64,000 nucleotides of DNA. Source: an uncultured bacterium (GTDB taxonomy: Bacteria > Oederibacteriota > PGYV01 > CAWJRG01). The notes below the pieces were generated by a model. The model was not told the origin of the DNA, did no database searches, and saw only the letters and a program-made list of their open reading frames with translations. A program made the position numbers and the translations under genes. The stretch's first letter is position 1. Every line of letters starts with the position of its first letter. Below are positions 31,035-35,456 of this stretch, in pieces. Location of the stretch: the NCBI GenBank assembly GCA_963845185.1, contig CAWJRG010000006.1, forward strand, positions 64,001 through 128,000, written 5' to 3'.

Positions 31035-31465
31035 TTTGCTATTTTTGCAGCTGCCTCAAGCGCCAGGTAATAACTGTTTTCCCCAAAGCCGGTAATCTGG
31101 CCAACGACAACAGGAGCGATAAACGACTTTTGCCTGAAATCCTCCCTTTTATATATGTTGGAAAGGTGGACTTCTATGGTGGGAATATTTACCGAAGCCA
31201 GGGCGTCCCTTATTGCCACGGATGTGTGGGTATAGGCGCCGGGGTTTATTATAATGCAGTCTGCCCAGTTCAAGCCGTGCTGTATGGTGTCCACAATCTC
31301 GCCTTCATGGTTGCTTTGAACTGTTTTAATCTCCATATCAAGCTCTTTTGCCTGTATTTCAAGGTTTTTATTTATTTTTGCAAGGTCGGTATTGCCGTAT
31401 ATATCAGGCTCTCTCTGGCCGAGCAGGTTTAAATTCGGGCCGTGTATAACAAGGACCTTTTTCAT
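31031..31465 (-). CDS. aroQ: type II 3-dehydroquinate dehydratase
   Basis: HGPNLNLLGQREPDIYG, QSNHEG, INPGAYTHTSVAIRDAL, EVHLSNI. Confidence 0.97.
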   Translation of the reverse strand: MKKVLVIHGPNLNLLGQREPDIYGNTDLAKINKNLEIQAKELDMEIKTVQSNHEGEIVDTIQHGLNWADCIIINPGAYTHTSVAIRDALASVNIPTIEVHLSNIYKREDFRQKSFIAPVVVGQITGFGENSYYLALEAAAKIAK

Positions 31466-31588
31466 GATTATGCCTCCGTGGTTGCTTGATTTTTTTAAGT
31501 ATAACAGAAAAGCACGCGATTTCAACAGATTTTTCAGTTGAAGTTTTTGAATATAGGTTGTAAAATTGTGAAAATACGGATCCAGGAA

Positions 31589-31666
31589 GGGCTGGTAACT
31601 CAGTTTGGTTAGAGTGCCATCTTCACAGGATGGAAGTCGCCAGTTCAAATCTGGCCCAGCCCACCA
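31589..31666 (+). tRNA. tRNA-Val(CAC)
   Basis: GGGCTGG/CCAGCCC acceptor stem, CCATC-ttCACag-GATGG anticodon arm, TTCAAAT T-loop, encoded CCA. Confidence 0.93.
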
Positions 31667-31763
31667 TGATTTTTCTTTTCCATACAAAAGCGGAGCAGAT
31701 TGACTATTCGCTGGACAGACTGAATAATGTGAAGTTCAAAATTTCAAACCGGAGGCAGTAATT

Positions 31764-31832
31764 ATGTGCAAAACGTGCGGTTGCGGCATGCCCAAGAAAA
31801 CAAAAAAGAAAAAAACCAAAAAAGGCAAATAA
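31764..31832 (+). CDS. 22-aa CxxCGC micropeptide (HypB N-terminal nickel-motif-like) with poly-Lys tail
   Basis: MCKTCGCGMPKKTKKKKTKKGK*; GGAGG RBS at 31751-31755; directly upstream of hypA. Confidence 0.72.
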   Translation: MCKTCGCGMPKKTKKKKTKKGK

Positions 31833-31860
31833 CTTTAGAACAATATTTACGGAGTAAATC

Positions 31861-32202
31861 ATGCATGAAGTCTCAATAGCCGAAGAAATCAGGGATATAG
31901 TCCTGGAAAAATTAAAGGAACATAAGGCAAGCAAGGTGAGTAAAATAAAATTAATGATAGGCGAGCTCACCACCATAGTACCTGAAGCACTTAAGTTTGC
32001 CCTTGAAATAGTTTCGGACAAGACAGCAATGCAGGGCGCAAAAATACAGATAAAGACTGTAAAAACAAAAGTAAAATGCCTAAAATGCAAAAGGAAATTT
32101 AAAGCCGTTGATTTTGATTATGCCTGCCGGGCTTGCAAAAGCCAGGATGTCAGAATCATTGAAGGAAAAGAAATGATAATAAAGACTATTGATATGGAGT
32201 AA
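31861..32202 (+). CDS. hypA: hydrogenase maturation nickel metallochaperone HypA
   Basis: MHE N-terminus, CLKC and CRAC motifs, GKEM. Confidence 0.95.
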   Translation: MHEVSIAEEIRDIVLEKLKEHKASKVSKIKLMIGELTTIVPEALKFALEIVSDKTAMQGAKIQIKTVKTKVKCLKCKRKFKAVDFDYACRACKSQDVRIIEGKEMIIKTIDME

Positions 32203-32206
32203 CGAT

Positions 32207-32884
32207 ATGGCCAAAATCGATGTTTTTGAAAATATCATGAAGCGCAACGAGGCTAATGCCGCGAAAAACAAGAAAATAATAGGAAAGTCCCTGTGCATCA
32301 ATATTATGAGCTCGCCGGGCGCAGGCAAGACAACCATACTTGAGCGCACAATGGAAATACTCGGAAAAAAATATAAAATTGCCGTAATTGAAGGGGATGT
32401 GGCAACATCCAATGACGCGAAAAGAATCAAGAAATACAAAATACCAGTGTACCAGATAAAGACGGAGAACTACGGTGGCGGCTGCCACCTGGACGCGGCC
32501 ATGGTAAACAGCGCGCTTAAAAAATTAGGCGCTGGAAAGAAAAGGTATGATATTATTATAATTGAAAATGTAGGCAACCTTATATGCCCGGCTGATTTCG
32601 CGCTTGGCGAGGATAAAAAGGTGGTTGTGCTTTCCGTTACCGAAGGGGAAGACAAGCCGCTTAAATACCCTCTGATGTTTCAGGTGGCGGATGCGATGGT
32701 ACTTAATAAAATAGACCTTGTGCCGCACCTTGATTTTGACCAGGAAGAGCTGTTCAAAAACATGAAAAAAGTTAACAGCCGATTGACCCTGGTAAGAATG
32801 TCAGCCGCGCACGGGACATACACGGAGCAGTGGACAGGCCTTTTAGAAAAATGGATTAAGGAGAAAAAATGCCGGAAGAAGTAA
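32207..32884 (+). CDS. hypB: hydrogenase nickel incorporation GTPase HypB (no N-terminal CxxCGC extension)
   Basis: SSPGAGKTT, IEGD, GCHLDA, ENVGNLICPA, EGEDKPLKYP, NKIDL. Confidence 0.96.
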   Translation: MAKIDVFENIMKRNEANAAKNKKIIGKSLCINIMSSPGAGKTTILERTMEILGKKYKIAVIEGDVATSNDAKRIKKYKIPVYQIKTENYGGGCHLDAAMVNSALKKLGAGKKRYDIIIIENVGNLICPADFALGEDKKVVVLSVTEGEDKPLKYPLMFQVADAMVLNKIDLVPHLDFDQEELFKNMKKVNSRLTLVRMSAAHGTYTEQWTGLLEKWIKEKKCRKK

Positions 32885-35028
32885 AACCATTAAGCAAGGA
32901 TGATATAGATTACGCAAAGGTATTTAATATAAAAGTATGGGAGGGCATCCAATATAAACTCGCCAAAGTTCTCGGCATAACGATAAAAGTAATAAGCGAA
33001 GATAATAAAATAGAAACCGAGGAAACCAATTTTAACGAGTTCTGCGAACTTGTCAGGGGCACGGAAAAAGGCGCGTTGGCATGCAAGGAATTAAGGGTAA
33101 GCGAAACTGAAAAAGGAGCGAAATTCATCAAATGCAAGGCGGCGGGATTTACCCATTATTGCGCCTCGACTTATTTTTACGGGAAAAGATTCAATATACT
33201 TATAGGCATAAAAGGAGACCTGGATTATGACAAGACCGTAATTAAAAAAATCAGCGATGATTACGGGATAGATGCGGAAAAACTAATAAAATCATATAAA
33301 AGCATGAGCGTAGTGTCTGAGGAAAAAATAATCAGCCTTACGGATCTGATACTGGACCTTTTTAACATAGTGGTGGAACTTTCAGTGCAGCAATACACCA
33401 TTCACCGCGCAAACAAGGAAAAAGAGGAAGAAATAAGCAAGATGAGCGCGCTGATGGAAGCCAGCATAGTAATAAACTCCACCAGAAATTTGCAGCAGCT
33501 TTTAAGGATAATCATGCAGTCTGCCGAACGCGTAATGCAGGCAGAGGCCAGCTCGGTATTTTTAATTGATTCAGAAAAAAACGAGCTGTATTTTGAAGTG
33601 GCTACAGGCCCGAAAGAAAAAGAGGTAAAAGAAATAAGGCTGAAAATGGGCGAGGGCATAGCAGGATATGTGGCATATACGGGCGAGTCTTTGCTTGTGC
33701 CCGATGTCTCAAAAGACCCGAGGTTCGCGCGCAGGGTGGATGAGCAGACGCACTTCATAACAAGATCAGCCATATGCGTGCCTTTGAAAGTAAGAAATCA
33801 GATTATAGGCGTGGTACAGGTGCTTAATAAAATAGGAGGGACAACTTTTTCCAAAACCGAGATAAAATTCCTTGAGGCCCTTGCGTCACAGGCAGCCATA
33901 GCTATTGAGAATACAAACCTTTATGAGCATCTGGAAGAAAGGGCGGAGCAGTTAAACAAGGAATTAAAAGAAGCAAATATAAACCTGTCGATAGAAAAGC
34001 GCAGGATAGAATCAATGGTACAGAGCATGCAGGACGCCGTACTTGCCATAGACAAAGGCAGAAAAATAACCATGATGAACAGGATAGCGGAAAAAATATT
34101 TGATATTAACGCGGGCGAGGCTTTTAACAAGTTCATAGGAGATTATGTCAAGAACAAGGAAATAATTGATAATTTTAATCTGGTATTGACTGAAAAAAAC
34201 TCAACAAAAGGCGAAGTTAAATTTATGCTGGGAAGCAAAGAACATATTTTTGCGGCAGTATTTGCACCGATAATATCAGAAAGCCAGGAAGCCGCTGGTT
34301 CGGTGGCTGTTTTAAGGGATATAACGGAATTAAAAGAGCTGGATAAAATGAAAACCGAATTTTTGAACATGGTCTCTCATGAACTCAGGACCCCTCTTAC
34401 GCCGATACAGGCTTATTCGGAACTAATGATGACGCGGAATATGGAAGGCGAAAAGATAAAAGATTATGCAGGCATTATAAACAAGGAAACGCAAAGGCTT
34501 GGCGCGCTCATAGGGGACCTTCTCGACCTTTCAAGGGTGGAAGCAGGCAAGGGACTCAGCCTTGAACTGGAGGAAGTCGACCCTGTGGAGATAATCAAGC
34601 TTGTTTACGATACATTTAAAAATTCATCAAGCAAACATAAATTTATTTTGACAATACCTGAAAAAAGTGAGAAAATAATGATTGATAGAAATAAAATAAT
34701 CCAGGTTATAACAAACCTGTTATCAAATGCCGTAAAGTATTCACCGGATGGCGGGAATATAACAATTATTTTTGAAGACAAAGGTAATAGGGTGTATGTA
34801 AGAGTAAAGGATGAGGGAATAGGATTGGCCAAAGAGCATATTGACCAGGTTTTTGACAAGTTCTACAGGGTTCCAAGCGAAACAGTTAAAAAAATAAGCG
34901 GTACGGGCATAGGATTAACCATAGTAAAGTATATACTTGAACTGCACAACGGTGGAATAGCGGTTGAAAGCGAAGAGGGCAAGGGAAGCACATTTAGTTT
35001 TTATTTGCCAAAGGTAAAATCGATTTAA
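32869..35028 (+). CDS. cytoplasmic sensor histidine kinase (PocR-like, GAF, PAS, HisKA, HATPase)
   Basis: FCELVR..C..C.AGF PocR-like; GEGIAG GAF; SHELRTPLT, NLLSNAVKYS, DEGIG, GTGIGL. Confidence 0.92.
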   Translation: MPEEVKPLSKDDIDYAKVFNIKVWEGIQYKLAKVLGITIKVISEDNKIETEETNFNEFCELVRGTEKGALACKELRVSETEKGAKFIKCKAAGFTHYCASTYFYGKRFNILIGIKGDLDYDKTVIKKISDDYGIDAEKLIKSYKSMSVVSEEKIISLTDLILDLFNIVVELSVQQYTIHRANKEKEEEISKMSALMEASIVINSTRNLQQLLRIIMQSAERVMQAEASSVFLIDSEKNELYFEVATGPKEKEVKEIRLKMGEGIAGYVAYTGESLLVPDVSKDPRFARRVDEQTHFITRSAICVPLKVRNQIIGVVQVLNKIGGTTFSKTEIKFLEALASQAAIAIENTNLYEHLEERAEQLNKELKEANINLSIEKRRIESMVQSMQDAVLAIDKGRKITMMNRIAEKIFDINAGEAFNKFIGDYVKNKEIIDNFNLVLTEKNSTKGEVKFMLGSKEHIFAAVFAPIISESQEAAGSVAVLRDITELKELDKMKTEFLNMVSHELRTPLTPIQAYSELMMTRNMEGEKIKDYAGIINKETQRLGALIGDLLDLSRVEAGKGLSLELEEVDPVEIIKLVYDTFKNSSSKHKFILTIPEKSEKIMIDRNKIIQVITNLLSNAVKYSPDGGNITIIFEDKGNRVYVRVKDEGIGLAKEHIDQVFDKFYRVPSETVKKISGTGIGLTIVKYILELHNGGIAVESEEGKGSTFSFYLPKVKSI

Positions 35029-35042
35029 AAGGAGGAAATAAT

Positions 35043-35456
35043 ATGGCTGATGAAAAAAGAAAGGTGGTTGTAGCAGATGATGAGCCTTTTATATTGTCTG
35101 CGTTGCAGGATACTTTATCCGAGGACTATAAAGTTTACAGCGCAACAAACGGCAAGGAAGCCATAAAAATGGTTGAAAAGGTGGAGCCTGACCTGATAAT
35201 ACTTGACGTAATGATGCCTGAAATGGACGGGCTTGAGGCATGCAAAGTTTTGAAAAAATCTGCCGTAACTGCAAACGTGCCCATAATAATATTGACCGCA
35301 AAAGGCCAGATAACGGATATTGAAAAAGGTTTTAAATCAGGAGCGGACGCTTATATTGTCAAGCCATTTTCACCGGCAAGGCTTATTGAGAAAGTGGAAG
35401 AAATTTTTGAAAAGGTTGAAATGCGGAGAAAGATCCAGGACAAAAAGAAAGAATAG
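35043..35456 (+). CDS. single-domain response regulator
   Basis: ADDE, LDVMMP, LTAK, KPF. Confidence 0.93.
   Translation: MADEKRKVVVADDEPFILSALQDTLSEDYKVYSATNGKEAIKMVEKVEPDLIILDVMMPEMDGLEACKVLKKSAVTANVPIIILTAKGQITDIEKGFKSGADAYIVKPFSPARLIEKVEEIFEKVEMRRKIQDKKKE

Follow-up and report, generated by a model that had tools for sequence, protein, structure and literature searches.

In Escherichia coli, the N-terminal extension of HypB, the GTPase that works with HypA in nickel insertion, bears the motif CxxCGC in the form CTTCGC (PMC12284835). Its ligand set and tight affinity for Ni(II) are documented (PMC12284835, PMC7055735), the reported Kd is sub-picomolar (PMC7055735), and the site is one of the tightest biological nickel sites known. 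Nickel is supplied to it by SlyD (PMC12284835), and HypA has a nickel site of its own at its N-terminal MHE sequence (PMC13202556). GTPase-type HypB proteins are sorted by their N-termini into three types (i.e., those with no such site, those with CxxCGC, and those with CxxCGC plus a His-rich stretch; PMC13202556). Here, we describe a 22-codon open reading frame (ORF), below called the micro-ORF, in a 64,000-nucleotide stretch of contig CAWJRG010000006.1 (assembly GCA_963845185.1) from an uncultured bacterium of the phylum Oederibacteriota (the window). In it, the CxxCGC motif is encoded directly upstream of hypA by a gene separate from hypB, which adds a fourth arrangement to the three that PMC13202556 sets out. 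A literature search over full texts, judged by title and abstract, brought up no account of a separate gene for a CxxCGC peptide.

A short free peptide starting with the HypB motif reportedly binds metal alone, a result ascribed to Chan Chung et al. (JACS 2008). Small maquettes of CxxCGC respond to both Ni(II) and Zn(II) (PMC12284835); these are laboratory constructs, whereas the window peptide is encoded by a natural, conserved gene and has a charged tail. The designed 13-residue di-nickel peptide "NB" chelates through a Cys-x-Cys-Gly-Cys sequence by means of thiolates and backbone/amine nitrogens, binds two Ni with its four Cys, and evolves H2 in vitro (PMC10005181). It shows that peptides of such size can hold nickel in defined sites, and the natural peptides are of similar size and share its Cys-Gly-Cys, with no activity known or claimed for them. 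The C(P)XCG zinc-finger micro-proteins of Haloferax volcanii are very small, with at least two knuckles and a zinc-finger fold (PMC11241148); the peptides considered here are likewise tiny prokaryotic Cys-knuckle proteins, and their 39–49-residue relatives bear two CxxCG knuckles, but the 22-residue peptide, with one CxxCG and one more Cys, is too short for such a fold.

The closest comparison is with the HypB prefix itself, which the peptide resembles in motif, position, and genomic company while falling outside the family by the tests run. The two share the motif at residues 2–7 after the initiator Met, the Gly that follows, and the setting in a hypA-hypB cluster; they differ in that the peptide is encoded by a micro-gene of 15–45 codons that is separate from the GTPase and lies 5′ of hypA, and in its Lys/Thr-rich tail (among the 26 hits of the genome scan that have a tail of this kind, there is no HypB). 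By its short, site-less N-terminus, the window HypB belongs with HypB subgroup 1 (e.g., H. pylori, M. maripaludis; PMC13202556); the account of that subgroup in PMC13202556 describes no separate CxxCGC carrier, whereas in the window the motif is found in a neighbouring micro-gene.

A CxxCGC micro-gene directly upstream of hypA

The micro-ORF (22 codons plus TAA, MCKTCGCGMPKKTKKKKTKKGK) occupies positions 31764–31832 of the forward strand, as given by the ORF listing, and its translation is an N-terminal CxxCGCG motif followed by a Lys/Thr-rich tail. The motif reads MCKTCGCG, with Cys-x-x-Cys-Gly-Cys at residues 2–7 as in the HypB prefix. A Shine-Dalgarno sequence, GGAGG (31751–31755, forward strand), lies 8 nt 5′ of the ATG, which is the first start codon past the preceding in-frame stop, so that the Cys motif stands at the very N-terminus; in the window and its relatives alike, the α-amine could therefore act as a fourth ligand once the initiator Met is lost. 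A 28-nt spacer separates the TAA (ending at 31832) from the ATG of hypA (31861–32202, forward strand; 113 residues with an MHE N-terminus and two CxxC pairs; PF01155, 3.5e-32; TIGR00100, 103.7 bits). Next comes hypB (32207–32884, forward strand; TIGR00073, 251.8 bits), encoding a G3E GTPase with the short N-terminus MAKIDVFENIMKRNEANA. Because the micro-ORF has its own stop and hypA intervenes before hypB, the peptide is not covalently part of HypB. The two observations from which a first-pass annotation of this DNA had set out, namely a GGAGG-preceded 22-residue ORF with CxxCGC placed 28 nt before hypA and a local HypB devoid of an N-terminal CxxCGC, are both borne out by the ORF listing and the sequence. 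The intergenic stretch that holds the micro-ORF is A+T-rich.

Profile searches place the peptide near the HypB prefix and outside any family. The HypB_prefix_1 model (NF053667) matches the window peptide with 17.1 bits (E = 0.011, positions 1–18 of 72), below its cut-off of 30 bits. In NCBIfam at E ≤ 10, only the two HypB prefix models (NF053667 and NF053668) match it; in Pfam at E ≤ 0.01, no family does, and apart from the HypB prefixes no Pfam or NCBIfam model of a small-protein family (metallothioneins, zinc ribbons, and others) gives a match. The other hyp-linked peptides score 17.5–20.6 bits against HypB_prefix_1 (E = 0.0009–0.008 for six of them), and this model is the top NCBIfam match for 7 of the 8 hyp-linked peptides and for most of the 26 other peptides, always below the cut-off.

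Equivalents in related genomes were sought by two routes. A DNA pattern for M-C-x-x-C-G-C-G gave a single match in the window's 3.5-Mb genome and matched in 6 of 41 sampled relatives, this genome included, compared with 1 match for a reversed-pattern control; the five other matches are all ORFs of 15–22 codons that combine the motif with a Lys-rich tail and have a GGAGG-type site in front. The second route was independent of the motif: HypB (TIGR00073) was searched for across 99 genomes of the phylum, and the loci were then read upstream. HypB was found above the cut-off in 35 of the 99, including 10 of the 24 within the window's order, and 33 of the 35 loci were read (the two omitted are contig-end fragments; the N-terminus of L066 runs into the contig end). 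Inspection of the 300 nt upstream of hypA in the hypAB-bearing genomes of the order revealed, in 6 of 10, an ORF of 15–45 residues with MCxxC(G/E)CG and a Lys-rich composition directly 5′ of hypA. These are the window's own genome (G000), four others of the order (G002, G005, G010, and G012; G numbers denote genomes of this order), and G006, which has a 45-codon variant, MCGVCECGCGCGDVKRKKAGKTVKKLKGRSKAGKTIKGKKKKQDA, in which MCGVCECG, with Glu replacing the first Gly, is followed by CGCG, repeating Cys-Gly-Cys. In G003, hypAB is on one contig and the micro-ORF, MCAACGCGAKKKVKKKKK, is on another, 23 nt 5′ of the same PocR kinase whose gene lies directly 3′ of hypB in G000, G002, G005, G010, G012, and G013 (tblastn); a regulatory tie between the peptide and this kinase may exist. 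The CxxCGC motif is intact in six of these seven order versions, G006 being the exception. As equivalents at the same place were found via hypB and not via the motif, the micro-ORF is not a product of chance. The search for small MCxxCGC ORFs 5′ of hypA that the first-pass annotation had suggested thus found them in relatives, also when the motif was left out of the search, and the lack of conservation that it had named among the findings that would refute its reading did not materialize.

Neither a HypB nor an open frame ahead of it carries CxxCGC in any of the 33 phylum loci read, and the motif pattern is absent from the 14 order genomes without HypB and from the phylum's other 75 genomes. 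In a HypB tree of 26 rows (7 of the 33 HypB sequences read were omitted as near-duplicates of retained rows), the order forms one clade (support 97/95) within which three peptide-less genomes stand apart from each other. This scatter fits a single origin followed by losses; the inner forks are weak, and several gains would also be possible. Used as a protein database query, the 45-residue G006 variant retrieved its own cluster only, with three member sequences on two contigs; genes this short are rarely called by annotation, so that sparse protein-database matches say little.

Translation-start signals and constraint on codon use

Among the five closest versions of the micro-ORF, 6 of the 7 motif codons vary synonymously (Cys TGC/TGT; Gly GGT/GGA/GGC; Thr ACG/ACC), with a single non-synonymous change, Thr to Asn; the HypA and HypB proteins of the same genomes are 47–58% and 57–64% identical, respectively, to those of the window. 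The tail, 7 to 33 residues long, is Lys-rich throughout and acid-free in six of the seven order versions (that of G006 has one Asp), i.e., it is kept in composition, not in sequence.

GGAGG-type sites are found 5′ of all seven order versions, and the signal was quantified over the larger set of micro-ORFs obtained in the collection scans described in the last section. Positions −17 to −4 were compared with those of 4456 control ATGs from these loci; the scan pattern sets no upstream requirement, so that any Shine-Dalgarno enrichment is independent of the selection. A 4-mer Shine-Dalgarno match precedes 72 of 86 distinct starts versus 13% of the control ATGs, and GGAGG or AGGAG precedes 64 of the 86 versus 3.9%. 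In the six hypA-linked order versions, the spacers between the micro-ORF stop and the hypA ATG are 28, 2, 3, 12, 9, and −8 nt, and short spacers of this kind suggest translational coupling. In G002 and G010, where hypA starts 2–3 nt past the micro-ORF stop, there is no GGAG-like site in the 20 nt 5′ of the hypA ATG; in these two genomes, hypA is thus probably reached by ribosomes that have just translated the micro-ORF.

The choice of Lys codons provides a further signal. In 58 distinct members with a basic tail, AAA (214) and AAG (241) are interleaved, and when the Lys codons were shuffled within each ORF 2000 times, the summed longest A runs came to 408 ± 13.7, versus 320 observed, with none of the 2000 shuffles as low. 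It should be noted that the members are related, so that the test gives no clean probability; its direction is clear. A runs reach 7 in the window micro-ORF and never exceed 8 in the 58 members. The codon order thus keeps clear of slippery A tracts, which is what faithful reading of the frame would call for. Direct observation covers the ORF and its conservation, the signals at its start, the geometry of its coupling to hypA, and the constraints on its codons; on this basis, it is very probable that the micro-ORF is a real, translated, and selected micro-gene.

The surroundings of the locus can be described as follows. A promoter-like TTGACT-17-AATAAT sequence, matching 10 of 12 consensus positions, is located at 31700–31728 on the forward strand, and a transcript from it would begin ∼30 nt 5′ of the micro-ORF; since the region has 4 such sites where shuffles have 2.2 ± 1.4, a consensus match of this kind is weak by itself. 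A search for sequencing runs that contain positions 31400–33000 listed none, RNA runs included, and thus speaks neither for nor against expression. Further upstream lies tRNA-Val(cac) (31589–31666, forward strand; ARAGORN; Rfam tRNA, 62.6 bits), a synteny anchor that is likewise found 5′ in G005, in G012, and in the micro-ORF-less G013. In G005 (L006/L049) and G012 (L005/L036), only ∼10–15 nt separate the end of the tRNA from the micro-ORF's Shine-Dalgarno sequence, too little to hold a promoter, and the hyp operon may thus be co-transcribed with the tRNA. On the other side, hypB is followed by a PocR-GAF-PAS-HisKA-HATPase histidine kinase gene (32869–35028, forward strand; Pfam), the start of which overlaps the hypB end, and by a single-domain response regulator gene (35043–35456, forward strand; PF00072, 2.5e-31), the last of the apparent operon.

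A proposed role in nickel handling and its competitors

We infer the translation of the micro-ORF, the loss of its Met, the binding of Ni(II), and a role in hydrogenase maturation from sequence comparison, as follows. The micro-ORF would be the first cistron of a micro-ORF-hypA-hypB-kinase-regulator operon, and translational coupling would tie the output of the peptide to that of HypA. Methionine aminopeptidase prefers a small second residue such as Cys, and the initiator Met would therefore be removed, leaving a 21-residue peptide that would expose the free amine of Cys and three thiolates (Cys2, Cys5, and Cys7). The N-terminus of E. coli HypB uses these same four ligands to bind a single Ni(II), in square-planar geometry and with picomolar affinity. 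The peptide would in this way supply, in trans, a high-affinity site for the capture or holding of nickel to a short, motif-less HypB, and its Lys-rich tail, charged and disordered, could serve as a handle that aids solubility or attaches to a polyanion. We consider it likely that the peptide binds a metal through its Cys motif; that it serves nickel insertion together with HypA and HypB in the window lineage is the more demanding claim, and one that we favour with some reserve.

The genomic setting provides for such a role. There is one HypB in the window's 3.5-Mb genome, and [NiFe]-hydrogenase large-subunit matches at three places, so that client enzymes for a nickel peptide exist. SlyD was not found in this genome, where the sole FKBP-type domain (L165) is that of trigger factor; with no counterpart to SlyD, the nickel reservoir of E. 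coli, a nickel-holding role for the peptide is plausible. What the CxxCGC site does in HypB is itself under debate, since HypA does not receive the nickel it holds, and a separate gene product of 15–45 residues would allow the site to be deleted, titrated, or added back with the GTPase untouched.

Several observations weigh against a role of this kind. In E. coli, Ni(II) held by CxxCGC is not transferred to HypA, and maturation fails with a HypB that has the motif but not the remainder of its N-terminal extension (both PMC12284835), so that the bare motif may not be enough; E. coli HypB needs the rest of its extension and SlyD, and the window lineage has neither. The peptide is dispensable in kin: 3 of the 10 hypAB-bearing genomes of the order (G007, G013, and G014, with completeness values of 99, 88, and 98) have no micro-ORF, even when a relaxed MCxxCxCG pattern is applied genome-wide, and in G013 the order of tRNA-Val, hypA, hypB, and kinase is retained with the micro-ORF alone absent. 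None of the 25 HypB-bearing genomes of other orders has it either. All HypB N-termini read in the phylum are without a prefix, yet the peptide occurs in just 7 of the 35 HypB-bearing genomes, which gives the anticorrelation with CxxCGC-bearing HypB proposed in the first-pass annotation no contrast to act on. The match to HypB_prefix_1 is equally good (17–21 bits) for peptides with no link to hyp genes, and in other phyla the same type of peptide is found beside genes unrelated to nickel, which means that the motif is not hydrogenase-specific. A predicted complex of the 45-residue G006 peptide with G006 HypB (26-row alignment), with a median score of 0.02 where the mark was 0.32, speaks neither for nor against such a role.

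The tail is a further difficulty, since HypA (net charge −5 to +7) and HypB (+8 to +22) are mostly basic in the ten genomes of the order and offer it no obvious acidic partner. Electrostatic docking on either protein is thus unlikely, and the partner of the Lys tail is probably a polyanion (RNA, membrane lipid, or polyphosphate) or an acidic protein other than HypA and HypB. SlyD binds positively charged peptides (PMC11198818); as a partner of the tail it was rejected for the window organism, trigger factor being the single FKBP match. The HypB of the peptide-less G013, which has the highest net charge of the ten (+22), carries a strongly basic C-terminal tail, EKWIAAKKKGKRRKKSKRGS; this may be a coincidence, or the tail may have been transferred onto HypB.

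The best-surviving competitor holds that the peptide is a generic binder of soft metals (Zn, Fe, Cu, Co, or Ni) or a redox-active thiol peptide, for which the place before hypA is one of many contexts. The same peptide type does stand beside genes for ribonucleotide reductase, cupredoxin, rubrerythrin, RuBisCO, and ArgB/ArgD and in a NifU-like fusion; the CxxCGC maquette binds Zn(II) as well (PMC12284835); and HypB_prefix_1 scores fail to separate hyp-linked peptides from the others. We nevertheless consider it unlikely, because within the order only genomes with HypB carry the peptide (7 of 10 versus 0 of 14) and because six of the seven order versions are coupled to hypA at −8 to 28 nt. For the window lineage, the generic and the nickel-specific explanations are compatible and differ mainly on specificity.

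A second alternative is that the micro-ORF is a cis-acting leader whose translation controls how strongly hypA, hypB, and the kinase are expressed (e.g., through ribosome delivery or by responding to the supply of nickel or cysteine), the peptide itself being functionless. It would account for the constant position of the micro-ORF as first cistron, which extends to G003, where it is still 5′ of the kinase with hypAB on another contig, and for the hypA genes of G002 and G010, which start 2–3 nt past its stop and have no Shine-Dalgarno site of their own; three Cys in eight codons also resemble amino-acid-sensing leaders. A ribosome-delivering ORF, however, has no need of the residues, both Gly included, that are retained here despite codon drift; the spacer of −8 to 28 nt is too short for alternative hairpins; A runs prone to ribosome sliding are avoided; and in other phyla the peptide gene is placed inside operons (e.g., argB, peptide, argD at 9–13 nt). 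We therefore regard a purely cis-acting function as distinctly improbable. An attenuator-type leader was rejected, there being no room for hairpins, no terminator-like site in 31400–32300, no Rfam cis-regulatory element at the locus, and no unusual fold (the 151-nt stretch around the micro-ORF folds no better than shuffles; z = 0.13). The tRNA is the only credible Rfam match, the other hit being Plastid-ycf2 (24.4 bits versus a gathering score of 65.7, antisense on the tRNA), and a riboswitch or other RNA element was rejected on these grounds and on the fold. The proposal in the first-pass annotation of a nickel-sensing leader whose AAA-rich poly-Lys tail influences ribosome progress is not supported: ribosome sliding or stalling on poly(A) calls for long unbroken A runs of repeated AAA codons, whereas the runs found here have a maximum of 8, and a poly(A) sliding or stalling element was rejected.

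The frame offsets between micro-ORF and hypA (1, 2, 0, 0, 0, and 1 in the six order versions) are inconsistent, so that fusion to HypA by read-through or frameshifting is unlikely; it would also bury the MHE nickel site at the N-terminus of HypA (PMC13202556). Finally, the micro-ORF might have arisen by chance or be what is left of the 5′ end of an older hypB copy that bore the motif, and its 22 codons, its A+T-rich intergenic setting, and the lack of a Pfam match might speak for this. Both possibilities can be dismissed, given that the micro-ORF is kept, start signals included, in five of the order's families and at 9 further hyp-linked metagenome loci, that the pattern matches once per genome versus 1 reversed-pattern match in 41 genomes, and that it is hypA, not a HypB remnant, that lies 3′ in a phylum where no motif-bearing HypB was seen in the loci read.

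Related peptides outside the hyp operon

Collection scans with a pattern of the motif plus KKxKK within five residues, and nothing else demanded, yielded 26 loci in species-representative genomes, 74 in metagenome contigs, and 8 in viral contigs, with 73 distinct peptides (53 of up to 25 residues, 16 of 26–50, and 4 longer) from records that bear the labels of at least ten groups of bacteria and archaea and from phages. The genome-scan records are labelled Goldbacteria/Goldiibacteriota (three of the five order relatives), Omnitrophota, Ratteibacteria, Patescibacteria, Planctomycetota (Phycisphaerae and Pirellulales among them), Nitrospiraceae, Woesearchaeota, Nanoarchaeota, and Methanosarcinales. 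A hyp link is found only in the window's lineage, at 5 of the 26 genome loci and 10 of the 74 metagenome loci, counting the kinase-linked form. Neighbouring ORFs were sent to Pfam (91 of 122 from the genomes and 100 of 117 from the metagenomes, near-duplicates being omitted).

Several of the contexts thus identified recur. A peptide of 14–19 residues, MCGSCGCGKKKPKK or a close variant, lies ∼150 nt 5′ of a class II ribonucleotide reductase with a TSCPD domain at genome loci L026, L027, L032, and L034 and metagenome loci L098, L117, and L127, which are Omnitrophota-labelled and often place it just past RtcB. At L115, L120, L143, and L147, the peptide gene ends 2–64 nt before a cupredoxin gene or overlaps it by 4 nt, which hints at a copper-related role in those organisms; the tails of these peptides are acidic or mixed, and in L120 a DsbA-like thioredoxin is encoded upstream. 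Genes for rubrerythrin, desulfoferrodoxin, FMN reductase, peroxiredoxin, or prismane adjoin the peptide at L083, L101, L110, L118, and L144. A form of 39–49 residues (L011, L012, L016, L028, L029, and L030; L087, L088, L097, L106, L109, L119, and L126) has the same N-terminal motif, a second CxxCG knuckle, and a CC pair, and is found in an oxidative-stress operon made up of CMD, ferritin, rubrerythrin, desulfoferrodoxin, the 39–49-residue peptide, FMN reductase, and peroxiredoxin (e.g., L011, L029, L088, L097, and L119); it may be a minimal rubredoxin-like electron carrier. The peptide is also found 5′ of the RuBisCO large subunit (L090, L116, and L150), between argB and argD with spacers of 9–13 nt (L123 and L131), and 3′ of arginase and pyruvoyl arginine decarboxylase genes (L019 and L023), three contexts without an obvious soft-metal link. 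At L018 (2501–2764), an MCxxCGCG prefix is part of an 88-residue NifU-like protein (PF01106, 8.2e-30), i.e., HypB is not the sole fusion partner of the motif.

The motif can thus be regarded as a portable N-terminal module, found free and with a charged tail in many lineages. This bears on the origin of the hyp-linked gene: the idea in the first-pass annotation of a stand-alone nickel peptide acting in trans gains from the conservation and the hypA context, while its suggestion that the peptide was split off from HypB is doubtful, because none of the 33 phylum HypB proteins carries the motif and the same peptide stands beside unrelated genes elsewhere. Recruitment of a free-living micro-gene into the hyp operon is at least as likely as fission of HypB.

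A more general possibility, which we put forward tentatively and without leaning toward it, is that MCxxCGCG peptides with charged tails are widespread free metal-hook micro-proteins that act in trans for varied metalloenzymes, the HypB prefix being a fused member of this older, free-living class and not its source. The metalloenzymes served would be hydrogenase here and cupredoxin, rubrerythrin/superoxide reductase, B12-dependent ribonucleotide reductase, and NifU-type proteins elsewhere. A bolder extension, by analogy with the designed nickel peptides of equal size, would give nickel-loaded peptides a redox chemistry of their own. The scans add dozens of unannotated genes of 13–25 codons, below gene-caller length, with strong start signals and codon-level constraint, in poorly understood genomes (Omnitrophota, Patescibacteria, DPANN archaea, Planctomycetota, and phages); if these micro-proteins are metal carriers, a part of metal trafficking is invisible to present annotation.

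Phages are represented by the eight viral contigs (L157–L164, IMG/VR), which carry peptides of 15–50 residues of the same type (e.g., MCKSCGCGKKHKKKK). Versions with an acidic tail were found at L009, L021, L081, L086, and L120, and these are under-sampled, because the scan pattern caught them only through out-of-frame matches.

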